Of a DNA stretch of 64,000 bases, positions 8,400-61,157 are shown one piece after another. The position numbers were made by a program, and so were the translations under genes. This DNA is from a virus (Duplodnaviria > Heunggongvirae > Uroviricota > Caudoviricetes), in IMG/VR virus record IMGVR_UViG_2526164631_000023; one strand, 5' to 3'. The notes under the pieces are model-generated. The model did no database searches and was not told the origin of the DNA. It saw nothing but the letters and a program-made list of their open reading frames with translations. Numbering within the stretch: position 1 is the first letter of the stretch; each line of letters begins with the position of its first letter.

Positions 8400-8544
8400 T
8401 GGTGGCGAACGTGTCGGTATCACCAACGTCACTTGACGTAGATGAAGGTGAAACTATCGCCGCGAACACTTCAAAGGCACAGAAAAAACAAAGCAGAAGT
8501 AAGGCAAAAACACGCCCCTGATTAAGGGGCGTTCAGGAGAAAAA

Positions 8545-12467: not shown

Positions 12468-12519
12468 TCTCTTTCCCGCCCTTGTGGCGGGAACTCCTTG
12501 TATTTGAGTTGTAGGTACG

Positions 12520-13071: not shown

Positions 13072-13086
13072 CGCTGGAGGCGCAGA

Positions 13087-23153: not shown

Positions 23154-26100
23154 TTATGGGTGCTGATAAAACGAACAACATAATGACACTATCCTCTGGT
23201 GTCTCACAGCCGTTGCTTGCTGATGTTCAATATTTCGAACTCTATAGTAGTTCGGCTCTTAACAGAAAACTTAAAAATATTGTTTTGCCGGGCTTTTACT
23301 GTGGATTTGAACCAGTTCCCGGCGCAGGGTTGAGAGTCCGTATAACTTCTGAAAACTCAGAAGGTAAAGGGGCTGCTTCAGTAGATGTAAATAATGTTCA
23401 GATATCCGTTCAGCAAATAGAAGATGTGACTGTCTCGGTAAAGGCTGGGGCTACCAACATTATTGTGCTAGAAGCCAATTTTGAACATGGTGTAAAAACG
23501 ACACAGGTAGAGAGCGCATCTTCTGTCAGTGCTGCAAGAATTTACGCGCGTACGGACAATACTATTGGGCAGAATCAAATTGAATTATGTCGAGTTATCG
23601 TGCCTAACGGCGCAACGGCTGTGACGAAAGAAATGATTGTGCTTAAATACCGGGTTAACCGTGCTGTTGGTGTCGAATTCTCTAATGAAATAAGCAGTAC
23701 AGAAGAAAGAAAAGCGGCTACACCTCTGGCTGTCAAAACTCTCCATGATTTGGTTGATACAAAAGCTCCGCTCGATAGTCCACATCTGTCAGGTACGCCG
23801 ACAGCACCTACGGCCTCACAAGGCACAAATAGCACGCAGATTGCAAATACAGCCTTTGTTAAGGCAGCTATAACTGCACTTATCAACGGTGCACCTGGCA
23901 CACTGGATACGCTGAAAGAAATAGCGGCTGCGATCAATAACGACCCGAATTTCAGCACAACTATCAACAATGCCCTGGCTCTCAAAGCGCCTTTGGCAAG
24001 CCCGGCGTTCACAGGTACGCCGACAGCACCTACGGCCTCACAAGGCACAAATAGCACGCAGATTGCTACGACCGCTTATGTAAGAGCTGCCATATCCGCA
24101 TTGGTTGGTTCATCACCAGAAGCTCTTGATACCCTGAATGAGCTTGCCGCAGCACTTGGTAATGACCCGAACTTTGCGACAACAATGACAAATGCGCTGG
24201 CAGGCAAACAGCCTCTGGATGCAACTTTAACCGCTCTTGCTTCCCTTGCGACTGGTGCAAACAAACTGCCTTATTTCACGGGTAAGGATACGGTAGCTCA
24301 GACTGATTTAACGTCAGTCGGTCGCGATATTCTGGCTAAAACAAGCATACTGGCCGTTATCCAATACCTTGGTTTAAGAGAACTCGGTACCAGCGGTGAA
24401 AAGATCCCCCTGTTAAGCACAGCTAACACATGGAGTGCGCGCCAGACTTTCAACGGCGGGATCACCGGGGCGCTGACAGGGAACGCCGACACCGCGACGA
24501 AATTGAAAACCAAAAGGTCGCTTCAAGTTGACCTCCAAAGTGATAACGCCATCGACTTTGATGGTTCATCAAATGCTCTTCTGGGCATAAAAGGTATTTT
24601 ACCAATTACTCATGGGGGATTAGGTGCATCCAGCGTCTCTGGAGGGCGTACTAATCTTGGATTAGGTGTTGCGGACGTCCCCCAATTTAAGGGTATCAAT
24701 CTTGTTAACTCAACAGACGCTGATTTAGCCGCGTCAGGGATTGTAAGTGGTTATCTGAATAATTCAGCTGGGGTACAGAGGAGTCGTTTCAGAATTTATT
24801 CAGAGATAAGGAGTGGCAACCGCTCATGGCTGACGTTACATCTACAATCTGATACCAACACCAATAAATATGCCGGATTAGACATTGACGGTAACTTTCT
24901 GATTACCGGAGATAGCAAATGCCGAGCATTAGAACCAACTGATGCAGCGTTAACAAGAAAAAATATTGATGTTTACAGCAAAGCCGAAGTAGACCTTAAA
25001 AAAGGGATGAAATTCACCAGAGTCAATGCTCCTTCTGGAGCTGAAGAGGGTAAATTCTATCCTGTAGTCATCAAGAGATCTGCAACGAGCAATGGTGAAC
25101 TTGCTTCTCGGGTTATTATTTCCACTGCGTCGCGCCAAGCTGCACATCGCATGAACAACTGCGAATTCAATGGTTTTGTGATGCCTGCTGGTTGGAGTGA
25201 CAGAGGGCGGTACGCATACGGGATGTTCTGGCAATATCAGGATGCAGAACGGGCGATTCATTCTATTGCGATGAGCAATAAAGACGATGAAGTTAGCTCA
25301 GTTTTTTATATTGAAGGCGGAGCATTTCCAGTATGCGTTCTTGTGGAGGAGGGGCTTTCTGTTGTTGTCCCTACAACGGATTATATTGTTGGACAAACCA
25401 CATACAAATGGGGGGCTACCAACCCTAAAGCTGAATGTATAGCTGCCGACATAATTATTGATTTTAGCAATGGTCGTGGTTTCTATAGCTCTGGAAACCT
25501 CAATGGTAATGCTGCAACAGCAACTAAATTACAGACCGCCAGAACAATCAACGGAGTAACCTTCGATGGCACTACTGATATTTCGTTGACACCAGAGAAC
25601 ATTGGCGCGCTGTCTCTATCCGGAGGCACATTATTAGGAGGTCTGACAGCTCCATTACTTACCACTAAAAGCGATCTTATTTTTAGTAGCCATACAAGCC
25701 GTCATATCCGCTTTACATATACGAAAAATGACGGCACAACACTAACTGATGGGTACATATTTAAAGATGGCGTCGATAACCCTAACAGACGACCAGGCAT
25801 CCGGATAAATTGTGCTGCGCCGAATAAAGAAACCGGCAATGGTACTAATTCAGGTGATTGGATATTCGGTGAAGATGGCATTTTTACCATGCCGGGTGGC
25901 ACTGTTCTTCGGGGAGGAATCAATAGCAATGGCGTGCCGCAAAGTGAGTATAAACATGACATGCTCACGTCAGTTGTTGACGATGCAAAAATGTATCTGC
26001 GACGTTTCCGCTCCAGCACAGGTGCAAGCATATGGCATGAAACAATAGAGAATAATGTTTATCGCTTATGCACAGGAACAACTGACGCTCAGGAAGAGTT

Positions 26101-27475
26101 AGTCTTGAGGACTGGTTCCTATGCGAAATTCGCTGGCGAGATTATTTCCAAATCGGCGAATGGTCTGCGCATTGTCTATGGCAACTATGGATTCTTTATC
26201 CGAAACGATGGTTCAAGCACATACTTCATGTTGACCGATTCGGGTAACAGCCTAGGAACCTATAATAGGTTAAGGCCGCTTATCATTAACAATGCCAATG
26301 GTGCTGTTACGATCGGTAATGGACTCAATGTTACTGGCGGCATCAATGGTAGTTTGAACGGTAATGCTGCAACTGCAACAAAACTGCAAACAGCACGCAC
26401 AATAGGCGGTGTGTCATTCGATGGCTCCGCCAATATCAACCTGCCGGGTGTAAACATTGCTGGTAACCAGAACACAACCGGTAATGCAGCGACAGCGACC
26501 AAGTTGCAGACAGCATGTACTATCAACGGCGTCTCGTTTGATGGTTCTAAAGATATTGAACTTAACCCACGGTCTATAGGCACGATCAACTCCACAACAA
26601 TGTCTTTTAGTGGTGGTGCTGGATGGTTCAAGCTAGCAACTGTAACCATGCCACAGGCCAGTTCCGTGGTTTACATAAGCCTGATTGGTGGTGCAGGGTA
26701 TAACGTTGGCTCCCCGCATCAAGCAGGCATCTCTGAGCTGGTTCTGCGTGCCGGAAATGGAAATCCAAAAGGTATTACTGGTGCATTATGGCGACGGACC
26801 TCGGTTGGATTTACTAATTTTGCATGGGTGAATACATCTGGTGATACCTATGATGTTTATGTTGAAATAGGTAATTACGCCACAGGTGTTAATATTCAGT
26901 GGGATTATACCAGTAACGCCAGCGTAACGATTCATACATCACCAACTTATACAGCGAATAAACCAACAGGCCTGACAGATGGAACTGTATATGTAATTTA
27001 CAGTTCGCACATTAAACCGACTGCTGCTGATGTTGGGGCGTTGTCATTATCTGGAGGTCAATTGAATGGTGCACTGGGCATCGGAACATCCAGTGCTCTT
27101 GGCGGTAACTCGATTGTTTTGGGTGATAATGACACGGGCTTTAAACAAAATGGCGACGGTAATCTGGACGTTTATGCTAATAACGTCCATGTTATGCGCT
27201 TTGTCTCCGGCAGCATTCAAAGTAATAAAACCATAAATATTACAGGGCGTGTTAACCCCTCGGATTACGGTAACTTTGATTCCCGTTATGTGAAAGATGT
27301 TCGCCTGGGTACGCGTGTTGTTCAATTGATGGCGCGTGGTGGTCGTTATGAAAAAGCCGGACACGCAATTACCGGATTAAGAATCATTGGTGAAGTAGAT
27401 GGCGATGATGAAGCCATCTTCAGACCAATACAAAAATACATCAATGGCACATGGTATAACGTCGCACAGGTGTAA
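23150..27475 (+). CDS. Tail fibre protein S: constant N-terminal part fused to the currently expressed variable C-terminal cassette
   Basis: 1441 aa with repeated GNAATATKLQTARTI(N/G)GV(S/T)FDGS motifs and C-terminal ..INGTWYN; shares internal segments with reverse-strand cassette. Confidence 0.8.
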   Translation: MIMGADKTNNIMTLSSGVSQPLLADVQYFELYSSSALNRKLKNIVLPGFYCGFEPVPGAGLRVRITSENSEGKGAASVDVNNVQISVQQIEDVTVSVKAGATNIIVLEANFEHGVKTTQVESASSVSAARIYARTDNTIGQNQIELCRVIVPNGATAVTKEMIVLKYRVNRAVGVEFSNEISSTEERKAATPLAVKTLHDLVDTKAPLDSPHLSGTPTAPTASQGTNSTQIANTAFVKAAITALINGAPGTLDTLKEIAAAINNDPNFSTTINNALALKAPLASPAFTGTPTAPTASQGTNSTQIATTAYVRAAISALVGSSPEALDTLNELAAALGNDPNFATTMTNALAGKQPLDATLTALASLATGANKLPYFTGKDTVAQTDLTSVGRDILAKTSILAVIQYLGLRELGTSGEKIPLLSTANTWSARQTFNGGITGALTGNADTATKLKTKRSLQVDLQSDNAIDFDGSSNALLGIKGILPITHGGLGASSVSGGRTNLGLGVADVPQFKGINLVNSTDADLAASGIVSGYLNNSAGVQRSRFRIYSEIRSGNRSWLTLHLQSDTNTNKYAGLDIDGNFLITGDSKCRALEPTDAALTRKNIDVYSKAEVDLKKGMKFTRVNAPSGAEEGKFYPVVIKRSATSNGELASRVIISTASRQAAHRMNNCEFNGFVMPAGWSDRGRYAYGMFWQYQDAERAIHSIAMSNKDDEVSSVFYIEGGAFPVCVLVEEGLSVVVPTTDYIVGQTTYKWGATNPKAECIAADIIIDFSNGRGFYSSGNLNGNAATATKLQTARTINGVTFDGTTDISLTPENIGALSLSGGTLLGGLTAPLLTTKSDLIFSSHTSRHIRFTYTKNDGTTLTDGYIFKDGVDNPNRRPGIRINCAAPNKETGNGTNSGDWIFGEDGIFTMPGGTVLRGGINSNGVPQSEYKHDMLTSVVDDAKMYLRRFRSSTGASIWHETIENNVYRLCTGTTDAQEELVLRTGSYAKFAGEIISKSANGLRIVYGNYGFFIRNDGSSTYFMLTDSGNSLGTYNRLRPLIINNANGAVTIGNGLNVTGGINGSLNGNAATATKLQTARTIGGVSFDGSANINLPGVNIAGNQNTTGNAATATKLQTACTINGVSFDGSKDIELNPRSIGTINSTTMSFSGGAGWFKLATVTMPQASSVVYISLIGGAGYNVGSPHQAGISELVLRAGNGNPKGITGALWRRTSVGFTNFAWVNTSGDTYDVYVEIGNYATGVNIQWDYTSNASVTIHTSPTYTANKPTGLTDGTVYVIYSSHIKPTAADVGALSLSGGQLNGALGIGTSSALGGNSIVLGDNDTGFKQNGDGNLDVYANNVHVMRFVSGSIQSNKTINITGRVNPSDYGNFDSRYVKDVRLGTRVVQLMARGGRYEKAGHAITGLRIIGEVDGDDEAIFRPIQKYINGTWYNVAQV
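24357..24382. other. gix/cix-like 26-bp recombinase crossover site (site A), in frame inside the fibre gene
   Basis: TTATCCAATACC TT GGTTTAAGAGAA matches remembered Gin-site TTATCCAAAACCTCGGTTTACAGGAA at ~20/26; encodes VIQYLGLRE. Confidence 0.5.
26132..26365. repeat. 234-bp inverted repeat, copy 1 (inside S), ~98% identical to reverse complement of 29167-29400
   Basis: Both copies encode EIISKSANGLRIVYGNYGFFIRNDGSSTYFMLTDSGNSLGTYNRLRPLIINNANGAVTIGNGLNVTGGINGSLNGNA. Confidence 0.8.
26196..26221. other. Candidate crossover site B inside the inverted repeat
   Basis: TTATCCGAAACG AT GGTTCAAGCACA; left half fits Hin-family half-site; inverted copy at 29310-29335. Confidence 0.3.
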
Positions 27476-27478
27476 ATT

Positions 27479-28006
27479 ATGCAGCATTTAAAAAATATTA
27501 AGTCAGGAAATCCAAAAACAAAAGAGCAATATCAGCTAACAAAGAATTTTGATGTTATCTGGTTATATACAGAAGACGGTAAAAACTGGTATGAGGAAGT
27601 AAATAACTTTCAGGACGACACCATAAAGATTGTTTACGATGAAAATAATATTATTGTCGCCATCACCAAAGATGCATCCACGCTTAACCCTGAAGGTTTT
27701 AGCGTCGTTGAGGTTCCCGATATTACAGCCAACCGCCGCGCTGATGATTCAGGAAAGTGGATGTTTAAGGATGGAGCTGTAGTTAAACGGATTTATACGG
27801 CAGACGAGCAACAACAACAGGCCGAATCACAAAAGGCCGCATTGCTTTCCGAAGCTGAATCAGTCATCCAACCGCTGGAACGCGCTGTCAGGCTGAATAT
27901 GGCAACAGACGAGGAACGCACACGACTGGAAGCATGGGAACGCTACAGTGTTCTGGTCAGCCGTGCGGATACGGCAAATCCTGAATGGCCACAAAAACCA
28001 GAGTAA
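27479..28006 (+). CDS. Tail fibre assembly chaperone (U/Tfa) for the current cassette
   Basis: 175 aa; N-terminal half ~70% identical to reverse-strand paralog 28035..28568; starts 4 nt after S stop. Confidence 0.8.
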
Positions 28007-28010
28007 AAAT

Positions 28011-28030
28011 TAAGGCCCGATAGCGGGCCT
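28011..28030. terminator. Bidirectional hairpin between convergent U and U' genes
   Basis: aaggcccgatagcgggcctt: 7-bp stem aggcccg/cgggcct. Confidence 0.45.
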
Positions 28031-28034
28031 TCTC

Positions 28035-28568
28035 TCATTCTGGTTGTTCGGGAAACGTTACTGGCAGGCCGGAAGTGTCTGTAGATTCGACTTTCTGCGC
28101 ATAGAGCATCCACTCGGTTAATTTTTGTTTATTCTCGTCGGAAATGATGCCCAGCCGTAGCTGTGAGTCCCATAGCTGGGTTTTATCCCTGACAAGTTGC
28201 AACAGGCTTTGCTTTTCATTTTCCGCTTGTTGCCTCTGCTCTTCCTCGGTATAAGTTCGCTTTATCACTACGCCATCTTTGAACATCCATTTCCCCGAAA
28301 TATCAGCCCGGCGATTTGCTGTAATATCAGGTAATTCAACGACGCTTGCACCCTCTGGATTAATTGCTGAAACATCCTTTTCAATACAAATAATAACGCC
28401 GTTATGGTCATAGACCATTTTCAAAGTGTCTGGCTGGAAATTCTTTTGTTCCTCATACCAGTTTTTTCCATCATCTGAATAAAGCCATTTGATGTTAAAT
28501 TGCTTTGTTAGCTGGTATTGCTCTTTTGTTTTAGGGTTGCCAGCAGTAATGTTTTTTAAGTGCATCAT
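28035..28568 (-). CDS. Alternative tail fibre assembly chaperone (U')
   Basis: 177 aa paralog of U on the opposite strand, directly downstream of the alternative fibre cassette. Confidence 0.8.
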   Translation of the reverse strand: MMHLKNITAGNPKTKEQYQLTKQFNIKWLYSDDGKNWYEEQKNFQPDTLKMVYDHNGVIICIEKDVSAINPEGASVVELPDITANRRADISGKWMFKDGVVIKRTYTEEEQRQQAENEKQSLLQLVRDKTQLWDSQLRLGIISDENKQKLTEWMLYAQKVESTDTSGLPVTFPEQPE

Positions 28569-28570
28569 CG

Positions 28571-30241
28571 TTAAATACTCCCCGCGTTATACCACGTCCC
28601 ATTAATGCAATACTGAATTGGCCTTGCCTGAGTTGTATCAATTAATTCATCACGGTTTCCGTTAACTGAACCCGTAACGACATAACCTGACCTGTCAGAC
28701 CAGCCGGGACCATTCCATGTCTGAACAGATGACAGACCGCCAAGGCGAATACCTGTAATAAACCTTGAGTTACATTCTGCCTGCGTGTATGCACCAACAT
28801 CTCCCGCAGAGGGTTTGCGGGTCGTGGTGTAAAACTCTGACCAGTCAGCCTCAAATCCATAACCATCACGCGCTGAACGATAAAAGATACCGCCGTTTTT
28901 ATAATTCACGCGGAACTGTACAGCAGGGCAACTCCCCGCATTCATATTAAAGTGGAGGATTAATGTCGATGCGCCACCAATGTTTGCGTTATAGACCCCG
29001 CTATTCCAGTTCCAGCCAACAGCTTTATCATTTGCGACCCTGCTTCCTGTTTGCCCTAGAGCAAACGCACCTACATGACTTGCTTTTAATGTGATATCGG
29101 AGGAACCATCAAAAGCCACGCCACTTATTTTTCTGGCAGTTTGTAACTTTGTAGCCGTAGATGCATTACCGTTCAAACTACCATTGATGCCGCCAGTAAC
29201 ATTGAGTCCATTACCGATCGTAACAGCACCATTGGCATTGTTAATGATAAGCGGCCTTAACCTATTATAGGTTCCTAGGCTGTTACCCGAATCGGTCAAC
29301 ATGAAGTATGTGCTTGAACCATCGTTTCGGATAAAGAATCCATAGTTGCCATAGACAATACGAAGACCATTCGCCGATTTGGAAATAATCTCGCCAGCAG
29401 CAGTTAATCCGCCAGTTAACGCTCCTCCAGATAGTGGTAAAGCTCCGACATCAGCCGCAGTAGGCTTGTTTTTAGTGTTATACGCTCTGCGCCATCCTGG
29501 TGAATAACTTGTGCCATTAGACACATAGATAAATTCAGCATTAGTGAGTGCGCCAGATACACTTGTCATCGTTGCCGTTGTTATTCGAATGGTGTAATTG
29601 TTGGTATTATTGCTGAATACTTCTATCACAGCACCCGCCAGTGGAATAATGCCACAACCAGTTTCACTGTCTGGTATGGATGCACTATTTGCATACGCCC
29701 AAGCACAACGAGCGAACCATGCTTTCGTATTGAATGCCCCGTTATTTTGCAACAAAGTAACTAACTGGGCTGTCGTTATTGACTCACCGTTATTACCTGT
29801 TGTTAACCAACCAGTAGGAGATGCCGGGCAACCAATATTTGCTGGTGACAGTGAAATATTCGCAGAACCGTCAAATGAAACCCCATTAATGGTACGTGCT
29901 GTTTGTAATGTCGTGGCAGACGCCGCATTTCCTGTTGTGTTCTGGTTGCCCGTTGTATTTACGCCCGGTATGGAGTCTTTCGATGTATAGACCTGTGCCC
30001 ACTCAGACCATGCCGCACCTGTGTAATCTCTTCGGGAGCGAATGAAAACTGGCGCATGTGCACCGCTCGTACCACTCCAGCCAATAAGCAACTCGCCCTC
30101 ACCAGCAGCACTCGCACCTTTCATGTGCAATACGTTGCCATACGTGGTCGGGTAGCTATTGTTGTACGCCTCGTACATTTGAATGCCAGCAGCGCCTTGA
30201 GTAGAGCCGCTTAACGCCGTAACTCGGCCACGAGATACCAA
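28571..30241 (-). CDS. Alternative tail fibre C-terminal cassette (Sv'): promoterless, no credible start
   Basis: Track start is TTG without SD and frame closes 15 codons upstream; fibre repeats (GNQNTTGNAASATTLQTARTINGVSFDGS) and C-terminal ..INGTWYNAGSI. Confidence 0.7.
   Translation of the reverse strand: MVSRGRVTALSGSTQGAAGIQMYEAYNNSYPTTYGNVLHMKGASAAGEGELLIGWSGTSGAHAPVFIRSRRDYTGAAWSEWAQVYTSKDSIPGVNTTGNQNTTGNAASATTLQTARTINGVSFDGSANISLSPANIGCPASPTGWLTTGNNGESITTAQLVTLLQNNGAFNTKAWFARCAWAYANSASIPDSETGCGIIPLAGAVIEVFSNNTNNYTIRITTATMTSVSGALTNAEFIYVSNGTSYSPGWRRAYNTKNKPTAADVGALPLSGGALTGGLTAAGEIISKSANGLRIVYGNYGFFIRNDGSSTYFMLTDSGNSLGTYNRLRPLIINNANGAVTIGNGLNVTGGINGSLNGNASTATKLQTARKISGVAFDGSSDITLKASHVGAFALGQTGSRVANDKAVGWNWNSGVYNANIGGASTLILHFNMNAGSCPAVQFRVNYKNGGIFYRSARDGYGFEADWSEFYTTTRKPSAGDVGAYTQAECNSRFITGIRLGGLSSVQTWNGPGWSDRSGYVVTGSVNGNRDELIDTTQARPIQYCINGTWYNAGSI
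29167..29400. repeat. 234-bp inverted repeat, copy 2 (inside Sv')
   Basis: Reverse complement nearly identical to 26132-26365. Confidence 0.8.
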
Positions 30242-30265
30242 TGTATTAATGTTGGTTTAAGAGAA
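30240..30265. other. Second gix/cix-like site (site C), same orientation as site A
   Basis: AATGTATTAATG TT GGTTTAAGAGAA; right half and next ~130 bp identical to site A flank. Confidence 0.4.
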
Positions 30266-30568
30266 CTCGGTACCAGCGGTGAAAAGATCCCCCTGTTGAG
30301 TACGGCTAACACATGGAGTGCACGCCAGACTTTCAACGGCGGGATCACCGGGGCGCTGACAGGGAATGCCGACACCGCGACGAAATTGAAAACAGCACGC
30401 ACGATTGGCGGTGTGGTATTTGATGGCTCGGCCAATATCAACCTTCCAGGTGTAAATACAACAGGTAACCAGAACACCACCGGGAATGCTGCTACCGCGA
30501 CAAAACTTGCGACGGCAAGAAACATCAACGGTGTTAAGTTTGATGGCTCAGGCGATATCAAGGTTTAG
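30252..30568 (+). pseudogene. Third, short tail-fibre 3' cassette (S'') lacking a start codon; possible remnant
   Basis: First 142 bp ~96% identical to 24369-24510; encodes ..GLRELGTSGEKIPLLSTANTWSARQTFNGGITGALTGNADTATKLKTARTIGG..GDIKV; stop overlaps invertase stop. Confidence 0.5.
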
Positions 30569-31125
30569 GATTGAAATGATGACGCCGGAAACTTCTTATA
30601 AAGCGTGGAAACAGCCACATCATAGATGATTGCAACCTGCTTACGGGGGATGCCCTTCTCCAGCAATCGCCGCATTTGCTGCCATGTTTCTTCTTGGTAT
30701 TTAGGCCGACGCCCACCTATACGACCTTCTGCGCGAGCTGCATCAAGTCCAGCGCGTGTACGTTCAACGATAAGCTCGCGTTCCATTTCTGCCAGCGCCC
30801 CCATTACGTGAAAGAAAAAGCGCCCCATTGGTGTACTGGTGTCGATGGAGTCAGTGAGACTCCGGAAGTTAATGCCTTTGTCACGAAGCTCTTCCACCAG
30901 CACAACCAAGTGACGCATGCTGCGCCCAAGACGATCTAACTTCCATACGACTAGGGTGTCACCTCTGGAAAGCATACGGAGAACCTTTTTTAACCCAGGG
31001 CGTTCAGCCTTTTTGCCGCTCGCCTTATCCTCAAAAATTAGCTCACATCCTGCGCTTTCAAGGGCGTTTCGTTGTAAAGCTGTGTTTTGGTCATTAGTTG
31101 ATACGCGAATGTATCCAATAAGCAT
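30565..31125 (-). CDS. Serine DNA invertase, Hin/Gin/Cin/Min family
   Basis: From ATG (complement 31125) MLIGYIRVSTNDQN..GDTLVVWKLDRLGRS..MGALAEMERELIVERT.. with catalytic Ser in the YxRVST motif and C-terminal HTH; SD aagggg upstream; track start 31185 is an in-frame upstream extension. Confidence 0.9.
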   Translation of the reverse strand: MLIGYIRVSTNDQNTALQRNALESAGCELIFEDKASGKKAERPGLKKVLRMLSRGDTLVVWKLDRLGRSMRHLVVLVEELRDKGINFRSLTDSIDTSTPMGRFFFHVMGALAEMERELIVERTRAGLDAARAEGRIGGRRPKYQEETWQQMRRLLEKGIPRKQVAIIYDVAVSTLYKKFPASSFQS

Positions 31126-31229
31126 ATGTCCCCCTTGTATGTTAAGGAGGGAGATTTTAGAAGATGTCCTGTAAGGAAATAACAAACTGACTAAGTTAGT
31201 GGCGCATTAGATGTTATTTCTGGAGGGGT

Positions 31230-31556
31230 ATGTTTGCAGATTATGAAAATCTGGCTGTAGTAGTCATAACATCCCTACTAAGTGGAACCGGCGTATTCCT
31301 TCTCGGAGTTAGAGACGGGCGCATTTCTGCGTCCCTGCTCAATCTTGCGAGTGAATTGTTTACTGCGGTAACAGCCGGGCTTGCGGGGTATGGGGTGGCG
31401 GTTAGCCAAGAATGGCCTGAAGGTATCATTTTCTGCGTTGTTCTGATTGCCAGTAACAACGGTAGTGAAATTTTACAGGGCTTAAAGTCCAGAGCTAGTA
31501 ACGTCTTGAATCTCTTAAGCGTAATAGCGAATGGGGGAAAAGGTGGAGAGAAATAA
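31230..31556 (+). CDS. Holin-like small membrane protein (P1 LydA position)
   Basis: 108 aa with hydrophobic segments; SD ggagggg; first gene of a long rightward operon. Confidence 0.4.
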   Translation: MFADYENLAVVVITSLLSGTGVFLLGVRDGRISASLLNLASELFTAVTAGLAGYGVAVSQEWPEGIIFCVVLIASNNGSEILQGLKSRASNVLNLLSVIANGGKGGEK

Positions 31557-32002
31557 TGGGTAACTTTGGAAATTATTTCATTTTTATCATGGCATTTGTT
31601 GCCATCATTGACCGTTTCATTTTTCGTCGCAAGAGTGTTGAGATTTTGAGTATTGGTGACGCTGTAGTGAAAGAATCCGCTATAGCATTTCCTGTTTCGC
31701 TACGTGTTAAGCGAAGCTGGGTCAGCAATGCTCAAATCGAATATTGGTTGCAAGACCTGAAAAATCCATCTGTGGTTATTTCAGGGAAAACGCGACCAGT
31801 TGACGCCTCAAAACGCGGTGAGAGAGAAGAGTATTTGCTCATCGATACGAAATATCTTGAGCCAACGAAGTGGGATCTGAAAGTCACATTGACTAACGGT
31901 AACTGTCGACTGAATCCGCTTTATCGCATTTTCCCTATCAATGACTGCATAGAGCGCCAGTTTACGATCGAAAAGCGTGAAGGAGACTGGGATGTCAAAT
32001 AA
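31556..32002 (+). CDS. Membrane-anchored protein (P1 LydB position; possible antiholin)
   Basis: 148 aa, N-terminal hydrophobic FIFIMAFVAIIDRFIF; start overlaps previous stop. Confidence 0.35.
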   Translation: MGNFGNYFIFIMAFVAIIDRFIFRRKSVEILSIGDAVVKESAIAFPVSLRVKRSWVSNAQIEYWLQDLKNPSVVISGKTRPVDASKRGEREEYLLIDTKYLEPTKWDLKVTLTNGNCRLNPLYRIFPINDCIERQFTIEKREGDWDVK

Positions 32003-32612
32003 GAATAATTATGTTCTTCTTAATTATGATGAGTTAAACGAAAAGGGGCTGTCAAAACTCGTCAAAGAAATCAGCAAAGGTGGTTACAAGATAGCGAGGG
32101 TGATCCCTGCAAGTAATGGCAGGAAGAAAGATGGGATCATGACGCGCACGTTTACCCTTATTGGTATTGATGAACAGACAATGGAAGTTCAGGTTAACGA
32201 TACCGGTGATATATCTGGGATCAAACTGAATGGTAAAACAGTACCGTTCAAGCCAGTAAAAACAATGTCGGCTTTGGGGCAATCTCTTGCGGCTTTATTT
32301 AATCGCGGAGCAACTTCTTTCCAGAAGTCATTAGCTCGAAAACTTGCTCGTGCAGCAAAAAATATTGATGACGGAAATAAGAAGCGGCAGGGAGTTAAAT
32401 CTAACGCTCAGAAATTAGCTGAAGCGAAAGAATCACGTGATGCACTCCGTGAAGATATCGCTAATGCTAACGACAAACTGTCTAAACTCCAGAGCAAGTC
32501 AGACAAAGTAATGCAAGATACGGGTAATGTTAAAGCTGCCTTGTCTCAGGAAGTAGCTAAGACACGTGCTCTTAAAGAAGAAATCGCGCGCCTGGAGGAT
32601 GAGCATGATTAA
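31992..32612 (+). CDS. Coiled-coil protein (P1 Hdf position)
   Basis: About 206 aa from internal ATG (MSNKNNYVLL); track ORF starts 31977. Confidence 0.3.
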   Translation: MSNKNNYVLLNYDELNEKGLSKLVKEISKGGYKIARVIPASNGRKKDGIMTRTFTLIGIDEQTMEVQVNDTGDISGIKLNGKTVPFKPVKTMSALGQSLAALFNRGATSFQKSLARKLARAAKNIDDGNKKRQGVKSNAQKLAEAKESRDALREDIANANDKLSKLQSKSDKVMQDTGNVKAALSQEVAKTRALKEEIARLEDEHD

Positions 32613-34541
32613 CAATCCTTTACGAATTAATATTCAGTCTACTTTTGCTGATACGATCCCCGGCTATATGCCAAGTCGCTGGTCTTCAGAAGAATTAAGC
32701 GAAGATGACCTGATTTTTGAGGCGGCGACCTTAGAAGATATTGAGCTTGCCTATATGGGCAATGAAATTCTGGTTGTGTCTGACGAAGCTATGTTTGAGT
32801 CCATAACTACAACCAGAATTCGGTTAGCTCAAACAATGCGAGCTTTCGTCCGTGCGCTGAATCGTGGCCTGAATGGTACGAATATTATGGCAGGGACTGA
32901 TGAAGCCGGGACCGATGAAAATGGACGTAATTGTATTGGTGGTGCGATTATCGGTCGTGTACGTCGGGTAGCTAATATCCCTGTTTTGACCGCGCAGATA
33001 CCGCTTACTGACGGGCAGAGTACAAGCATAATTTTCCACTCTCCAACAGCTGACGGGGCAAAAATAAAGAGTAACGACGAGCTTGTTGCATTTCAGTTTT
33101 TACTTAATAAGCGTAACGTAACTCACGTTGTCGCCCCGATTGGTGGGAGAGATGTTTCTTTAAGCCAGGTATGCCAGGCGCTATCTAATTTGATTGAGCG
33201 TAACAGCGAAAAATTTAAGAAGGCAAAAGAGCGCCAGGACAAAATGAAGGCAGATATTGAGAGTTATCTCAATGAAGCAGATAAACTGGCAGAAGAACGG
33301 TCAATAATGATTGATCAGGTGGACGTTGCGCAACGTGGGCTGACTGAAAAGCGTGCTGCTCTTACGGAGATGCAAAAAAACTTGATGCCCAGAAAGCCAT
33401 CAACGAGGAATTACAAGCAAAACGCGATAAATTGTTGTCTGCTAAAGGTGAAAAAACGAAAGAACGAGCGTTTAGCGACCAGCTGCGACATGTAAAACAT
33501 AATCTTGCCATTGACGGAAAAACAGTGCTGGATAATGGCGCTGAAGTTAATTATGTCACGTCCGGCAGTGACAATTTCGTTACGATAGTAGCACCTGAAG
33601 GTAAATTCAGTATTGATGCCAGTGCTGTCAAAGGAGGCAGTTTGGCAGATGCTGCAACCAAATTACTTAAAGCCTACCGAGAGCATAACGCAGATAAATA
33701 TAAAGTTGATGTGTTACCAGGCCAGCAGGAAGACCCCGAACCACCACAGACAGACCCCGAGACGAACCCAGTATCACAACCAGAGAGCCAGGATGTAGGT
33801 AAATACCACTATGCACTTCAATCTCGCCCGGCTGGTGTTGGTGCTGTGCCGGATGGAAATAAAGCCGTGCTTGATCGTCCTGACCAGGCTGATCAGTATT
33901 ACGAATATGCTCGTCACGGTATCATTACGTATGACCGTAAACTGACAGATGAAGAAGTCAGCCAGTACGAGTTGCTCTATCTTCCTGATGAAGATGAGCT
34001 GAAAGATTTTGCAGGCCAATTGGTTGTGTCCAGCATGTCGAAACATATTGATGGCTATGTAGACCTGTTTGGCAGTGACCTGAAAACATTCAAGGCGCAA
34101 GTGAAAATTCTTTTCCGCAAAGCGTTTCCAAACGTGGCGTATCCACTTGGTGATGGGGAGAACCTTTTCATTATGGACGTATATAACGCCCTTCAAAATC
34201 ATTCAAACGAAGTAACGCCAGAGCCTGAATTAGCACCTGTAGTTGAGCCAGAATCACACCCACAAACAGCACCAGAGCAACAGCCAACGCCGGAAGACGC
34301 TGAAGAAGCGGCAACTGAAGCTGATCAGGAAGCAGATAAAGCACTGGAGTACCTAAAATCCGTCCCGGTGCAGTTTACATCTCGCGATCTGACGGTAATC
34401 AGTGCCGAACTTGACCATGTGCAGGAAGCTGCAAACGCTCTTATCAGTGCTGGTCGATACGACGAGAACGAATCAACGGTTGGCGCAGCAGTTGACTACC
34501 TGATCAACATTCTGGCTGAAATTCAGCAGGGAGGTGCTTAA
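32604..34541 (+). pseudogene. darA-like virion antirestriction/head gene split by +1/-2 frameshift in an A7 tract (33374-33380)
   Basis: ORFs 32566..33495 and 33432..34541 overlap in different frames; one extra A gives a continuous ~645-aa protein (..TEMQKKLDAQKAINEELQAKRDKLLSAKGEK..), size close to P1 DarA as remembered. Confidence 0.5.
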
Positions 34542-34915
34542 TGACTATCTCTGTTTTAGACCGTCTGAAATTGGGTAAAGAGCTATCAGATTTAATGCAG
34601 GCGCAGAAAACCGCGCCAGTATTACAACGCGTCGCCATTGGTAAGCAGATTGTTGATCTGATGCTTAAACTGGGGTTGGGTACTGCCGCTCAACCGATGT
34701 CGGAACCGCAACCACAACCACAGTCTGATCCTGTTGCAGATGAAGTTCCTAAGATAGTGACTGACTTCCTGGGCGGCGTGTTCACAAAGTCCACACAAAT
34801 GGAATTTATTGATGCGCTGCGTGGGATCTCAAACTATGTTGGCGAGTTCCTTACGTTGGAGCAGGCTAAAGAACAGACCATAAGCTGGGTGAAAGCCAAC
34901 GGTTATGCCGGGTAA
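34541..34915 (+). CDS. Hypothetical protein (P1 DdrA position), 124 aa
   Basis: ATG overlaps upstream stop; followed by a terminator. Confidence 0.3.
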   Translation: MTISVLDRLKLGKELSDLMQAQKTAPVLQRVAIGKQIVDLMLKLGLGTAAQPMSEPQPQPQSDPVADEVPKIVTDFLGGVFTKSTQMEFIDALRGISNYVGEFLTLEQAKEQTISWVKANGYAG

Positions 34916-34918
34916 TCA

Positions 34919-34941
34919 AAAGGGGGCGAAATGCCCCTTTC
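34919..34941 (+). terminator. Intrinsic terminator after the holin/darA-like operon
   Basis: aagggggc gaaat gccccctt then T-rich tcacttctctgttctc. Confidence 0.5.
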
Positions 34942-34997
34942 ACTTCTCTGTTCTCACATAAATCACACTCTTTTTACACTCACAGCTTTCTCTATAG

Positions 34998-36395
34998 TTG
35001 GAGTGTATTTTGAACAAATCAGTTACTTCTGCGCTTTCCGAGGCCGCAGATATTAACAGCGTCATTGCTCTGGTTTCTTCATTAGAGAGGAAAGAAACAC
35101 GCCTGGGGCGAAGTAGCTACGTAGTCACCAGCAAAGGTGCAGAGGTAAAGACGGCTTTTAAGGTCGTTGATGCCAGCAGTCTGATCATTTCGAACAACCT
35201 TGACGGTATGATTAACCCGGCCTTCCCGGAAGAACTCCAACCACGAGATCGTACCCGGCTATCCAGCAAACTCCAGGTTAACCGTATTGCCTCCAATTTA
35301 CGCCCGGCACAATTAACGGATTCCGGTATGAGCAGCCACGGAGCGCCGATAGTTGGTCCGGACAACGTTGTTGAATCCGGCAACGGAAGGAGTATGGGTA
35401 TCTGGCGTGCCTATGAGCAAGGACAGGCGGATGAGTATCGCCAGTACCTGATCGACCATGCGAAAGAGTTTGGTCTGAATCCTGACGAAATTTCGCAAAT
35501 GTCTATGCCCGTACTAGTGCGAGAAAGACTCACAGATGTAGACCGCGCTCAATTTGCCCGCGATTCAAACATTAGCGATCTGCAAGAGATGGCAGCAAGT
35601 GAAAAAGCGTATGCGGATGCGCAATTTCTCACTGAGAGCGTCATGGCGCTATTTAATCCTTCAGATGATGGAAATCTGCTGGCGCGGTCCAATGATGCGT
35701 TTATTCGTGCGTTTTTGCGCGAAATTGGCGATACAGCGACGGCAGGCTTGCTTACTGCCGATGGGCGTCCCACGAAACAGCTTATCGATCGCATCCAGAA
35801 TGCAATTTTTGCCAAAGCGTACAAGGATGAAAGGCTTGTTCGGCTAGTGTCGGAAGAGCCAGATCCGGAAATGCGTAATATCCTGACCGCATTAAATACG
35901 GCAGCCAGCGATTTTGCGCAAATGCAGTCGCTGTCTGGCGACGCTCACCATGACGCAGTAACAGGCTTAGTGGACGGTATAGAGCAGGTTAATGGCCTGG
36001 ATACACAGGCGATAGCAGCACTCCAGGAAGCAATTAATCTTGTACGTGAAGCCAAAGACAACGGTCAGGCCGTTGAAGAAGTGATCGCCCAAAGGGGGTT
36101 ATTCGGCGACAGTACACCGGAAGCTGAGGCATTGGCGTTATTCATCGTAGCAAATAATCGCAGTGCGAAGCGTATGGGGGCAGCATTCAAAAAAATGGCG
36201 CAAAAAATCAACGACGAGCTGACTCATAAACAACAGGCATTGGGCGATATGTTCGGCGGTGGCGATGTTGATCTGCGTCGTATTTTGTCTGCTGTATCTG
36301 ATGAAATTGAGGGTGAATTTGGCGAAGGGAAAGGTCTGAACTTTGCTATGTTTGAAAATTCTACAGATCTAAATAATTGCCGTACGGAAAACTAA
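34998..36395 (+). CDS. Hypothetical protein, 465 aa (start uncertain)
   Basis: ORF only; upstream AAATCACA late-promoter-like motif. Confidence 0.3.
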   Translation: MECILNKSVTSALSEAADINSVIALVSSLERKETRLGRSSYVVTSKGAEVKTAFKVVDASSLIISNNLDGMINPAFPEELQPRDRTRLSSKLQVNRIASNLRPAQLTDSGMSSHGAPIVGPDNVVESGNGRSMGIWRAYEQGQADEYRQYLIDHAKEFGLNPDEISQMSMPVLVRERLTDVDRAQFARDSNISDLQEMAASEKAYADAQFLTESVMALFNPSDDGNLLARSNDAFIRAFLREIGDTATAGLLTADGRPTKQLIDRIQNAIFAKAYKDERLVRLVSEEPDPEMRNILTALNTAASDFAQMQSLSGDAHHDAVTGLVDGIEQVNGLDTQAIAALQEAINLVREAKDNGQAVEEVIAQRGLFGDSTPEAEALALFIVANNRSAKRMGAAFKKMAQKINDELTHKQQALGDMFGGGDVDLRRILSAVSDEIEGEFGEGKGLNFAMFENSTDLNNCRTEN

Positions 36396-36459
36396 ACCAA
36401 CCGCTGAAATCACATACTGATTATGCTGCCGCAAAACTGGAAACAATTTGCGGTGATTC

Positions 36460-38142
36460 ATGGCAACGAAAGACAAAAACAAAGGCTTTCTGTCAGCATT
36501 GAAGAAAGCCTTCAACGGTGGTGATGTTACGCCCGCCGATCCGGTCGTTTTTACGAGCGGACATAGTGTCGTTGCTCGTTCCGGCCTGTCTGCTTTACGT
36601 CCAGGCATCCTGGGGAGCAATGGCGATGGCATTACGAGTGAAGCAGATTCAATTTCTTTATCCGCTGAACTGCCCGGCGAGCGCCTGCAAAAGTACAACA
36701 TCCTGGAAACGATGGCTAAAAGCCCGACTATCTCGACGGCTTTAAACATTCACATTGCACATGCGCTTGCGCCTTCAAAAAAAACCGGACAAGCATTTAT
36801 CCTTTCGCCAAAGGATGGTTCCGATGCCGAGGCAGTAAGTAGATGTGAAGAGTTAACCGCTGATTTGGGGGCGATGATTAATGACGGACTTCCTTCATGG
36901 GCCATGATTATGGCGATCTTTGGGGTGTCTTATGTCCGACCTTATGCTGAACAGGGCAGGGGGATAACAGGCATTGAGTCCAGTTATTACACTCTGCCAC
37001 ACTTCGTCCAGGAGTTTTATCGTGGTAGCCAGCTGGTAGGTTTCAGTGGTGATTACATTCTGGATACGCATAGTTTGCGCAGAGTAATAACCGAACCGTG
37101 GAATCTGGTTTCCATGAAAAATCCCTATTGGACGCCACAGCATAAAGTTATTCCGGTTAGCTACGGCACAAAAGGGTACTCACTGTTAAGTGATCAGGCT
37201 GATAAGCCGTTAATGGAGACGCAGAATTACGGAACTTCATTCCTGGAATACAGCTATGAACCTTACCTTAATTTATGTGCTTCGCTCGCCGCGCTGAAAT
37301 CAACGCGAAATAATGCAGCCAAAATTGACCGCCTGATTGCTCTTACGACGAACACACTGGACCCGGTTAATGCGGCGAACTATACGCGTGGCGTCAGCCA
37401 GGCATTGAAGCGTCATAGTGACCTGGTGGCGCAAAGGTCGATTAATGCCAACGCTATTCCGACTGTGCTTAACCATCTGATACCTGTTATGGGAGACGGG
37501 AAGAACGGCATCACCATTGATACGCAATCCATACCCGCAGATATCAGTGGTATCGAAGACGTTATGTTTCACCTCCGGCAGCTTGCTGCAAGCCTCGGCA
37601 TTGACGCAACAATGCTTGGCTGGGCTGATCAGATGAGCGGAGGGCTTGGAGAAGGCGGCTGGCAGCAAACTGCTATCCAGGCTGCATTGCGTGCGAACTG
37701 GATCAGACAGGCCGCCCAGCGAACTATTTATCGGCTTCTGGACATTCACCTCGCTTATAAATACGGCAAGGTTTACACCGAAACAAACCGCCCTTATGAC
37801 GTGCAATTCAACTCAATGAACACAGCTATCCAGGAAGAGGAAAACCGAGAACTGGATGCACGCGCCAACTTTGTTGCTGTCATCTCCCAAATTATGGACC
37901 AGATCCAGAACAACCCGAAACTGGCTGGTAGCGACGCGTTTATGCGTTATCTGTTCACTGAGCAGTTGCACATCGACGATGACACTCTCAACACCATGAT
38001 CAAAGAGTTTAAGGCGAATGAATCAGAGCAAAACAACGAGCATGGTATGTACGAATCCGCGCCGTTGTCGTCCGGTGACGATCCGGAAAACTGGACGCCA
38101 GAACAGTTAATAAACTTTGCAAAATTTGTGATGAGCAATTAA
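36460..38142 (+). CDS. Candidate portal protein (560 aa)
   Basis: Size and position immediately upstream of candidate protease/scaffold gene, as in P1 prt-pro; unverified. Confidence 0.4.
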   Translation: MATKDKNKGFLSALKKAFNGGDVTPADPVVFTSGHSVVARSGLSALRPGILGSNGDGITSEADSISLSAELPGERLQKYNILETMAKSPTISTALNIHIAHALAPSKKTGQAFILSPKDGSDAEAVSRCEELTADLGAMINDGLPSWAMIMAIFGVSYVRPYAEQGRGITGIESSYYTLPHFVQEFYRGSQLVGFSGDYILDTHSLRRVITEPWNLVSMKNPYWTPQHKVIPVSYGTKGYSLLSDQADKPLMETQNYGTSFLEYSYEPYLNLCASLAALKSTRNNAAKIDRLIALTTNTLDPVNAANYTRGVSQALKRHSDLVAQRSINANAIPTVLNHLIPVMGDGKNGITIDTQSIPADISGIEDVMFHLRQLAASLGIDATMLGWADQMSGGLGEGGWQQTAIQAALRANWIRQAAQRTIYRLLDIHLAYKYGKVYTETNRPYDVQFNSMNTAIQEEENRELDARANFVAVISQIMDQIQNNPKLAGSDAFMRYLFTEQLHIDDDTLNTMIKEFKANESEQNNEHGMYESAPLSSGDDPENWTPEQLINFAKFVMSN

Positions 38143-38155
38143 CCGGAGGGAAATA

Positions 38156-39154
38156 ATGCAATCACTGAATACTGTTACGGATCGCTTCTCCCTGGTAGAG
38201 AAAATCCGCAAACACACACCGCAGAACAACCGAAATTACGTCATTCAGTCGGTACGAGACACATTCAACTCGCCAGAAACAAAAGAGCGTATCGCGCTGG
38301 GTGAGATGTATGGTTATTACGGTCATGGTCGCCGGGCGATGCACTATAACAAAACGAAAAGCCTGAACTTGCCGGAAGTCTCTGTTGTGATGGTAGATGG
38401 GAAGCCTGTTGTATTGGAGAACGTGCCGTCAAACAGGACTATCGACATTTCGATTGACGACAACGGCATTGTTACTCATACGCAGGAAATACTGAATACA
38501 GACACCGGGCATATTGTTCAGGGCATGATTAATTCTGGTGCTGGTGGTTGGTCGTGGGCTACATCTGGTCCAGATTCATCGGTATCCCTGGTAAAGTCTT
38601 TCCACGGCTTTGATTACGTAACTGTGCCTAACTATATCAGCCTCGACAAGAAAAGCCTGATGCTTGAATCAGCAGAAGAGCGCGATGCGGCTATTCATGC
38701 AGCACTTATCGAACAAGGTTTTACCGATAACGCTGCTACGGATCTGGTTCACCACTTTTCAGCAATGAAAAATCAGCAAGCCATGCTCGAATCTGCACAT
38801 CGTGAAGCCCTGGAATCAGAATTGATGCTCCTTGAAGTGGAAAACATACAGCTTCGAGATAAGCTGCGCGCTCAAACAGCGATGATGGAAAGCCAGGGGG
38901 AAAATGCAAAGCAATGCCGCCGGATTTTGCGTGAAGCTATCCAGGAAATGCCTGTTTTTATCAGCGCAGAACAGCGCCGGGCGCTCTGCCGTATGCAGTC
39001 TGAAGATGATGCCCGCATAGTGGCTGCGATGCTTGAATCTCTTGGGGCAAATGCTACTTATGGCTTACCGGTATCAGGCAAGAAAGAACCAGAGTTATCA
39101 CCGAAGGAGAACAAAAACACTACCCCGTTACTCTTCGTTTCCAGAAGGGGGTAA
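38156..39154 (+). CDS. Candidate prohead protease/scaffold protein (332 aa)
   Basis: Globular N-terminal domain (GYYGHG, GGWSWATSG) plus long C-terminal coiled coil; position after candidate portal. Confidence 0.35.
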   Translation: MQSLNTVTDRFSLVEKIRKHTPQNNRNYVIQSVRDTFNSPETKERIALGEMYGYYGHGRRAMHYNKTKSLNLPEVSVVMVDGKPVVLENVPSNRTIDISIDDNGIVTHTQEILNTDTGHIVQGMINSGAGGWSWATSGPDSSVSLVKSFHGFDYVTVPNYISLDKKSLMLESAEERDAAIHAALIEQGFTDNAATDLVHHFSAMKNQQAMLESAHREALESELMLLEVENIQLRDKLRAQTAMMESQGENAKQCRRILREAIQEMPVFISAEQRRALCRMQSEDDARIVAAMLESLGANATYGLPVSGKKEPELSPKENKNTTPLLFVSRRG

Positions 39155-39164
39155 TCGCCTTGTT

Positions 39165-39184
39165 AAGTTAAATTTCTAACATAG
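39165..39184 (-). promoter_or_regulatory. Operator-like motif copy g (reverse: CTATGTTAGAAATTTAACTT)
   Basis: Matches dispersed operator consensus. Confidence 0.4.
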
Positions 39185-39269
39185 TGTATTTATATACACT
39201 GTTGATCCTGGTGGATGGGATCGAGTAGGATCGCGGTCACTGCTCCGGTAGCGACTGCCAAAAAAGCAA

Positions 39270-39292
39270 AAGCCGCTGAGAAGCGGCTTTTT
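39270..39292 (+). terminator. Intrinsic terminator after candidate protease gene
   Basis: aagccgct gaga agcggctt followed by TTTT. Confidence 0.6.
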
Positions 39293-39354
39293 GGGTGTAT
39301 AAATCCACTGCCATAGATTTATACGGTAGATAGATTTTTTCACGGAACTATCTG

Positions 39355-39843
39355 GTGAGTATTTTAAATTCAGTTTCAGTAACTTTCAACACTTCTGAGT
39401 ATAAAAACAACACTGAATACCACAAAAAAATCAAAGGTCATCAGTTGAGTTTTTTTGCTCGTCATAGCGGTCTTCTTTCCCCTTCACATAGCGCCATTAT
39501 TGCCGAGTTCGCCAACCTGGCAGGGTCTACCGATGAATACATGATCCGTCGCTCATATGCTGATATGTCCGAGATTACAGGACGCAGTATTTCTACTGTG
39601 CGCCGGGCATTTGCTGAAGCGACGAAGTGCGGAATGCTTGTTAAGCAACATCAGGTAGCGAATAACAATGCCCAGGTGTGTAACGTATATCGGTTTACGA
39701 CACAATTTCTCCACTTCATTCATGTAGCAATGGAGATAGGGGGTAAGCAGGGCATCAAATTTGCCAACGCCACAAAACTGGTTAAGCAGTTGATTTCAAA
39801 GGTTCGTTATTTTTTGAAACTGGGACCCCCCTGTTCAAATTGA
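39355..39843 (+). CDS. Helix-turn-helix DNA-binding protein (162 aa)
   Basis: MSEITGRSISTVRRAFAEATKCGML resembles an HTH. Confidence 0.4.
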   Translation: MSILNSVSVTFNTSEYKNNTEYHKKIKGHQLSFFARHSGLLSPSHSAIIAEFANLAGSTDEYMIRRSYADMSEITGRSISTVRRAFAEATKCGMLVKQHQVANNNAQVCNVYRFTTQFLHFIHVAMEIGGKQGIKFANATKLVKQLISKVRYFLKLGPPCSN

Positions 39844-40316
39844 ACAAGTCCCCCCATGTTCAAAATGAACAGCCAATAGAAAATAAGAGTCACTCTATAG
39901 CCAAAAGAAGAGAAAGATCATGCGCGGTTCAGCCAAAGGCTTCACCAGCAGATAGTTCTCAAACGGCTAACGTGGTGCTGGATAAAAAACCAGTAATCAG
40001 GGAAGAACATACCAACCACTGCCTGGCGGCGGCAAAAGCGAGAGCTGCAAAGCGTCGTTCAGACGAGGGGCACGCAAAACGGCAGGCTCTGTATCGTACC
40101 GCTGAAAAGCTGGCAAAAAAATTTGCATGGATACGTAGTGCCGCTACCGCAGTGAATAAGCCTAAACAATCCAGTGCCCTGGATTTCTCAATGGATTATT
40201 CTGGCTCCCAGGGGTGTGCAACCATTGGTGAAGCCTTTGACCTGATGAAACAGCGTGGCTATCGGTCTGAATTTGACCGTGAGGATTGGTCAATCCCGGC
40301 TGGCTTTAGGGGATGA
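39840..40316 (+). CDS. Hypothetical basic protein (158 aa)
   Basis: ORF overlapping previous stop. Confidence 0.3.
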   Translation: MNKSPHVQNEQPIENKSHSIAKRRERSCAVQPKASPADSSQTANVVLDKKPVIREEHTNHCLAAAKARAAKRRSDEGHAKRQALYRTAEKLAKKFAWIRSAATAVNKPKQSSALDFSMDYSGSQGCATIGEAFDLMKQRGYRSEFDREDWSIPAGFRG

Positions 40317-40368
40317 CCTGTGCGTCTACAAAACATCCCAATGATCGGAAAATGCTCGCTCAATAATT

Positions 40369-40387
40369 TGTGTTAGAAAATTAATTT
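40369..40387 (+). promoter_or_regulatory. Operator-like motif copy b (TGTGTTAGAAAATTAATTT)
   Basis: Heads a ~400-bp non-coding leader upstream of the small ORF and Rha-like gene. Confidence 0.45.
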
Positions 40388-40731
40388 GATGTTTCTAAAT
40401 CGGAATGTATGATCTGCATCATCGACTGAAGTCATCCATTGCTGAAATTTTTAGTTGATCTTCCATGTTTTCAGGCTTATATTCATGTCGTCGTAGCAAA
40501 TTCTGCGACCGGGTTTAGCAGCCTGAATACGAATGCGGACAACCGCAGATATCCGATATTGCGGTATTTTTGTGTCCGTAAAACCACGTTACGCCCGAAT
40601 TATGGTGGGGCGTGATGGGGAGGCTTCGGCCTGCTGGTTTCATTCGTGCCAGTCTGCTAACCCCGTCACGTCCTGCCACCCGTTTAGCAGCGGGTGCGCA
40701 GGTTGTTAAACCTACGAATGAGGCCGTAACT

Positions 40732-40956
40732 ATGGTTAATGCCAATCCTTGCTCGCGCCCGGAATTTATCTGGCGTTTCCACTCCCTGCAAAAACACTGC
40801 GATCACTTCGCAATTGCCGCAACTGAAAAAGAAGCCCGTTCTCTGATCCCTGATCAACATGGCGTCCTGACTGGCCGTTTCTCTACTTCATCACAACCAA
40901 ACACTAATCCTTGGTATCGCAATATTACCAATCCCGGAATTGCGGAGGCACACTGA
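40732..40956 (+). CDS. Small ORF (~74 aa) whose stop overlaps the start of the Rha-family gene (P1 icd-like arrangement)
   Basis: ATG at 40732 with SD gagg; TGATG overlap at 40954-40958. Confidence 0.3.
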   Translation: MVNANPCSRPEFIWRFHSLQKHCDHFAIAATEKEARSLIPDQHGVLTGRFSTSSQPNTNPWYRNITNPGIAEAH

Positions 40957-41663
40957 TGGATATCTGCATTCTTGAAAAGCCATCAATGACCAGCATTGAG
41001 ATCGCGGAGCTGGTGGGAAAACGTCATGACAATGTGAAGCGTACCATTGAAACATTAGCCGAATCCGGCGTTATTGTTCGTCCTCAAATTGAGGATGAAC
41101 CAAAAATAGATGTAATGGGGCGTTCTCGATTAATTCAGGTGTTCCGATTTAGCGACGAGCAAGGCAAACGAGACAGTATCATTGTAGTCGCACAGCTTTG
41201 TCCTGAGTTTACTGCCCGGCTGGTGGACCGCTGGCGCGAACTGGAAGAACAAGCACGCCAGCCGTTGACCGAAATAGAGATGATCGCCGCAATGGCTGCA
41301 AATGCAGTTCAGCAGCAAAAGCGGCTTCATGTTGTTGAGTCAAAGGTTAGCCAGGTGGTAGAAACCGTCGAGCAAATCAAGAAGGGCAACATGCCGGAAG
41401 GTTACATTGGCTACCGCCAGCTGGCGGCAAAATGCGGCCTGACCGAAGCCAAATGTCGCAACCTGGTTAACGCTTACCGGATTCCCACCGATACACATGA
41501 GTTTTTAACTCCAGAGGGGGTATTGTCGCGTCGTTCCATCGTGGCCTTATCTCCCTTCATGAATGCTTTTAACCGGATGATGTCGGAGGCTGAACACCGA
41601 GGAAAACGCTGGTATCACCCCAAAATGGGGCAATTCCAGGTGATCGGTTGGGGAGGTGAGTGA
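40956..41663 (+). CDS. Rha-family phage regulatory protein / antirepressor-like
   Basis: N-terminal MTSIEIAELVGKRHDNVKRTIETL typical of Rha domain; ATG at 40956 with SD ggagg. Confidence 0.6.
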   Translation: MDICILEKPSMTSIEIAELVGKRHDNVKRTIETLAESGVIVRPQIEDEPKIDVMGRSRLIQVFRFSDEQGKRDSIIVVAQLCPEFTARLVDRWRELEEQARQPLTEIEMIAAMAANAVQQQKRLHVVESKVSQVVETVEQIKKGNMPEGYIGYRQLAAKCGLTEAKCRNLVNAYRIPTDTHEFLTPEGVLSRRSIVALSPFMNAFNRMMSEAEHRGKRWYHPKMGQFQVIGWGGE

Positions 41664-53798: not shown

Positions 53799-53874
53799 GA
53801 TGGTGTAGCTCAGTAGGATAGAGCAGCAGCCTTCTAAGCTGTCGGTAGGTGGTTCGAATCCACCCACCATCGCC
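53799..53874 (+). tRNA. tRNA-Arg (anticodon TCT)
   Basis: Hand-folded cloverleaf: acceptor gatggtg/caccatc, T-arm ggtggTTCGAATccacc, anticodon loop cTTCTAa, 3' CCA encoded. Confidence 0.65.
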
Positions 53875-53879
53875 AATTT

Positions 53880-53967: not shown

Positions 53968-53971
53968 AATT

Positions 53972-60980: not shown

Positions 60981-61157
60981 ATTACTATGACAAATTTATG
61001 TCGAATAACAGAGTGAGTAAAGGATAGAGCTGTGATTTTTTGTCATCAATTTTAGAAAACCAACTGTATAAACCACACTTCGCAAATTAAAGACCATGAA
61101 GGCAACGTGTTACTGGTCAGAATCAATCTGTGATGGATTAAAAAAATCGCCATTTTA

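Follow-up and report, generated by a model that had tools for sequence, protein, structure and literature searches.

DarA is known as an antirestriction protein from phage P1 only, in which it is packaged into the head, is processed by the prohead protease and protects DNA from type I restriction (PMC12810830). The inner surface of the P1 capsid is lined by 55 DarA-Hdf pairs, located at the penton-hexon junctions, and loss of either DarA or Hdf yields virions without any Dar proteins (PMC12810830). Escherichia phage D6 (NC_050154.1) carries a single annotated darA of 1938 nt encoding 645 amino acids (gp100), in the gene order cin / lydA-lydB-hdf-darA-ddrA-ddrB / portal. The closest sequence of all is a finished plasmid of 97,453 bp, pDEC12A-1 (NZ_CP077480.1) from E. 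coli O111:H2 strain 12A, on which one intact darA (28289..30226, 1938 nt) and an intact repL (963 nt) are annotated.

The 64,000-nucleotide stretch of DNA analysed here (the window) corresponds to positions 1-64000 of contig AIHA01000074.1 (GCA_000250215.2), from the 2012 draft genome of E. coli DEC12A. The AIHA prefix falls within the range of accessions given to the drafts of the DECA collection, published in 2012 (PMC3558956). Judged by its sequence, the window carries a phage-D6-like (P1-related) plasmid prophage. In a megablast comparison, positions 32400-34700 were 99.5% identical to D6, which has one base more, and a base-by-base comparison of darA itself gave ten substitutions and one indel, a tract of seven adenines (A7) in the window standing against A8 in D6.

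In the window, darA is not read as a single frame. Two ORFs on the plus strand, 32566..33495 and 33432..34541, overlap in different frames, and darA as written extends over 1937 nt from an ATG at 32605-32607 to the stop at 34541, against 1938 nt (645 amino acids) for the true gene. The earlier note had drawn attention to this ORF pair, had placed the cause in an A7 tract at 33374-33380 and had proposed that one inserted A would give a continuous protein of about 645 amino acids. The tract is located exactly there, and adding one A to it produced a 1938-nt ORF that is nucleotide-identical (100%) to the darA coding sequence of pDEC12A-1. The gene start given in that note, 32604, was off by one. 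The features of the locus, and of three further tracts considered below, are collected in the table.

Table. Positions in the window of darA as read, its apparent fragments and the four contracted homopolymers.
Feature	Position	Strand	Supporting comparison
darA (antirestriction internal head protein DarA, D6 type)	32605..34541	+	NF052326, DarA_N and DarA_C; match to pDEC12A-1
A7 tract, probably an under-called A8; apparent -1 frameshift site at codon 259	33374..33380	+	A8 in D6, pDEC12A-1, CP066033.1, 13/13 viral and 12/12 metagenome contigs
Apparent N-terminal fragment, 296 aa, annotated as EHX19870.1	32605..33495	+	
Apparent C-terminal fragment	33432..34541	+	TTG starts only, no ribosome-binding site
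A6 tract, probably an under-called A7; intergenic, between the capsid and Ig-like genes	8483..8488	+	A7 in pDEC12A-1
T6 tract, probably an under-called T7; inside repL	39810..39815	+	T7 in pDEC12A-1, CP066033.1, D6 and every other covering locus
A7 tract, probably an under-called A8; intergenic, between the c1-like repressor and cre-like recombinase genes	61140..61146	+	A8 in pDEC12A-1

The identity of the two fragments was examined with the NCBIfam DarA equivalog NF052326 (anti_RE_DarA, 'antirestriction phage head protein DarA'), for which the curated cut-off is 350 bits. The first fragment scored 472.9 bits over profile positions 1-284 and the second 625.7 bits over positions 294-654, so that the profile was matched above its cut-off from end to end; D6 DarA scored 1135.3 bits over positions 1-654. 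The Pfam domains occurred in N-to-C order, with DarA_N (PF18788) on the first fragment (E = 1.2e-40) and DarA_C (PF18789) on the second (E = 3.7e-19), and the same matches bear out the description of the gene as darA-like in the earlier note. As both fragments exceed the DarA cut-off and the two domains are divided between them, the ORFs are judged to be one gene broken at the tract and not a chance pair. The 296-residue product of the first ORF begins with 258 residues of genuine DarA sequence and ends with 38 residues read out of frame up to the stop. For the downstream ORF, an independent start was considered and rejected: the candidates are TTG codons at 33432 and 33435, neither is preceded by a Shine-Dalgarno-like sequence, and no other start candidates were found for this ORF. 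With TTG starts only and no ribosome-binding site, the downstream piece is not an independent gene.

The gene also occupies the position expected of darA in a P1-type late operon (lydA-lydB-hdf-darA-ddrA-ddrB), flanked in the expected order by LydB, Hdf (which is DarA_N-like) and a ddrB-ParB domain protein. The Hdf gene (31977-32612), immediately upstream of darA, itself matches Pfam DarA_N (E = 6.4e-18), which is consistent with Hdf being a paralogue of the DarA N-terminal region that may pair with DarA in the capsid. By homology with P1, D6-type DarA and Hdf would form pairs at the penton-hexon junctions on the inside of the capsid. The role carried over from the P1 work would be packaging of the other Dar proteins and protection of the incoming DNA against certain type I restriction systems.

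The finished plasmid comes from the same strain as the draft, and all 64,000 bases of the window could be aligned with it. The alignment contained 0 mismatches and 4 gaps of 1 base, and all four gaps (at window positions 8488, 33380, 39815 and 61146) are contractions in the window of homopolymers of at least 7 bases. Runs of this length make up 0.27% of the sequence, and four differences placed at random would have a probability of ~5e-11 of all lying within them; 4 of about 23-24 such runs were contracted, and 0 of roughly 300 runs of 5-6 bases. The contraction at 39810..39815 splits repL (lytic replication protein; window 39355-40316) into ORFs 39355..39843 and 39840..40316, which would otherwise resemble a second pseudogene and is judged to be the same artefact as the darA split. 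In D6 the annotated rox half-site lies 28 bp from the position to which the tract at 61140..61146 aligns.

At each of the four sites, the longer allele is present in D6 and in a near-identical plasmid, CP066033.1 (E. coli FDAARGOS_1059). The remaining fetched loci that span the darA and repL tracts have it there as well, with the exception of two records with A7 in darA (CP042632.1 and NZ_CP150992.1). Since the relatives and the finished plasmid share the longer alleles, it is the window that is the outlier. A comparison with D6 only was insufficient for this purpose, because many intergenic homopolymer differences from D6 are real differences between lineages that are also present in CP066033.1; the four changes found in the window alone emerged only from comparison with the near-identical plasmids. 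CP066033.1 was itself rejected as a reference for the same plasmid and is regarded as a sibling, since it has an IS100 in darA and two substitutions derived on its own side. The tract in that record is A8, yet darA is genuinely disrupted by an IS100 of 1954 bp (42589-44542) with a 5-bp target duplication, at a point corresponding to window 34008-34012; darA is therefore dispensable for plasmid maintenance. CP066033.1 and pDEC12A-1 are both exactly 97,453 bp long and near-identical, with IS100 at different sites: in pDEC12A-1 it lies instead in a DUF2829/Tad2-like gene (about 94.1-96.0 kb).

The length of the darA tract among relatives was surveyed with a sequence pattern that allowed A6-A10. 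The tract was A8 in 13/13 viral contigs and 12/12 metagenome contigs (25/25), and the same scan of the genome contigs collection returned no matches. Related plasmid records numbered 95, and 58 of the 60 listed exceeded the window by one base over the tract; for complete E. coli genome records, which numbered 78, the corresponding figure was 59 of the 60 listed. An exact 80-mer containing A7 was present in 2/95 plasmid records and 1/78 E. coli records. The possibility raised in the earlier note that relatives carry two separate genes here, with conserved independent starts, did not hold: no relative had such an arrangement, and the relatives carry a single in-frame coding sequence of 1938 nt.

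These observations indicate that the split darA is a homopolymer sequencing artefact, in which an A8 was read as A7 in the 2012 DEC12A draft, and the probability of this explanation is put at about 0.93. It follows from pDEC12A-1, the finished sequence for the same strain, which has A8 and an intact gene and from which the window differs by four homopolymer contractions and zero substitutions; the disagreement within the strain is confined to homopolymer lengths, and the outgroups side with the finished plasmid. Under this explanation, four long homopolymers (at least 7 bases) on the D6-like plasmid prophage would each have been read one base short in the draft, and in darA the undercalling of A8 as A7 would create an apparent -1 frameshift at codon 259. 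The real plasmid would then carry darA as a single intact gene of 645 amino acids in the lydA-lydB-hdf-darA-ddrA-ddrB operon. The cause was probably platform-specific undercalling of homopolymers in 454 pyrosequencing, an attribution based on the DECA collection presumably having been sequenced largely by that method. Among the three readings that the earlier note had offered without choosing between them, the homopolymer error is thus favoured by the A8 of pDEC12A-1, and neither an inactivating mutation nor phase variation found support.

The observation that runs against an artefact is that the reads of SRR096453 support A7 on independent re-assembly. The Logan re-assembly of this run is 100% identical to the window over 30337-41243, including both contractions located there (A7 in darA and T6 in repL), and it is one of only two contigs that encode the exact 296-residue fragment, the other being AIHA01000074.1, in which the record positions are the window coordinates. 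This result would be expected if A7 were a real -1 replication-slippage mutation in the DEC12A culture used for the draft, with stocks of the strain differing and darA and repL being genuine pseudogenes of a decaying plasmid prophage. Natural loss of darA is moreover seen in CP066033.1, through IS100, and A7 also occurs in the otherwise clean plasmid pCUVET16-559.2. The reproduction of the contractions by an independent assembly places the undercall in the reads and not in the assembler, and a count of A7 against A8 reads in SRR096453 would probably still favour A7. A real mutation would, however, require four independent contractions, all of them deletions, within 64 kb and with zero substitutions relative to the plasmid of the same strain, and two of the four would abolish lytic functions simultaneously. 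In E. coli mutation accumulation, substitutions outnumber indels several-fold, in wild-type and mismatch-repair-deficient strains alike; four indels with no substitutions are very unlikely under such spectra. An origin in a mismatch-repair mutator was rejected, as there are no substitutions on the branch leading to the window. Real inactivation of darA in the culture sequenced around 2010-2012 is accordingly considered very improbable.

It is also conceivable that the A-tract has a function in slippage, either as a phase-variable switch of DarA or with the A7 allele expressed through -1 ribosomal frameshifting on A_AAA_AAC (33375-33381) or through transcriptional slippage. The zero-frame codons of the A7 allele, CAA AAA AAC, contain a canonical X_XXY_YYZ heptamer, on which a -1 slip would yield full-length DarA with the substitution K259N, and A7 is found in two other public records. 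Yet the tract is near-invariant and in frame at A8 (25/25 contigs and at least 117/120 listed records), and a tract longer than A8 occurred neither in the 25 viral and metagenome contigs nor among the matches listed. In-frame and out-of-frame alleles are therefore not both common in the relatives, as they would be at a phase-variable contingency locus, and the relatives do not retain the two-ORF arrangement that would accompany programmed -1 frameshifting. As darA of pDEC12A-1, from the same strain, is in frame, recoding is not needed. Of the two other records with A7, CP042632.1 is moreover plainly full of errors: its assembly shows 20 isolated 1-bp indels within 15 kb, and very few genes are annotated on it. 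A functional tract is accordingly the least credible of the readings. The other A7 record, pCUVET16-559.2 (NZ_CP150992.1), is a complete, otherwise clean plasmid found in a urinary isolate from a cat. Its darA is split (locus 11268-13192), and over 18 kb A7 is its only isolated 1-bp indel relative to D6. Either a real slippage from A8 to A7 or a single polishing error could lie behind it, and in view of this record the change from A8 to A7 may at times occur for real. It remains highly doubtful, though slightly less so than a functional tract, that the A8 of D6-type darA is a genuine slippage hotspot with real A7 subpopulations (in cultures of, for example, DEC12A and CUVET16-559), which would produce virions lacking the whole Dar cargo, or leaky expression of full-length DarA(K259N) by a -1 slip on A_AAA_AAC. 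Were this the case, the hotspot would switch the anti-restriction and head-assembly capacity of a phage-plasmid stochastically and at low frequency. A separate record, XJK24522.1, is a 368-residue C-terminal fragment from another plasmid, of 98.7 kb, and hints at one more split darA.

If the split is a sequencing artefact, as is preferred here, it is not a real feature of the prophage and is of value for quality control, without new biology. The draft DEC12A contig would then contain systematic one-base undercalls at long homopolymers that generate false pseudogenes (darA and repL), and out-of-frame ORF pairs that meet at runs of at least 7 bases in the window are best treated as artefacts. 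The fragments have already spread in protein databases, as EHX19870.1, EHX19871.1 and, for repL, EHX19876.1, all named '[Escherichia coli DEC12A]', and as WP_ records of the same fragment sequences.

Several other features of the prophage were observed. A Cin-invertible tail-fibre segment occupies window 24359-30561, with cix sites near 24359-24510 and 30252-30396; its orientation is that of pDEC12A-1 and is inverted relative to CP066033.1, and internal repeats of ~300 bp (26132-26438 and 29092-29398) are common to the alternative S/S' tail-fibre tips. A gene annotated by RefSeq as a member of the Thoeris anti-defense Tad2 family is located at ~55550-56120 and a tRNA cluster at ~53800-55100. 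In the finished plasmid this cluster comprises tRNAs for Ile, Ser, Thr, Tyr and Arg, and it is unlike the set of three in D6. Immediately outside the window, next to position 1, the plasmid carries a glnS.

Compared with the described systems, the darA of the window differs from that of pDEC12A-1 (WP_151297035.1) solely in the length of the tract, A7 against A8, a difference ascribed to sequencing error. Between the repaired protein and D6 DarA, 5 of the 645 residues are different, and the operon order is common to both. P1 DarA (639 amino acids) belongs to the same NCBIfam equivalog as D6-type DarA and shares its Pfam domains and operon position, although the two have diverged to 38% identity over 94% of their length, and the A8 tract was examined in the D6 lineage only. 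The differences between the window and the finished plasmid also resemble the homopolymer errors of 454-type (flow-based) or long-read sequencing, in that they are likewise one-base contractions only, without substitutions.
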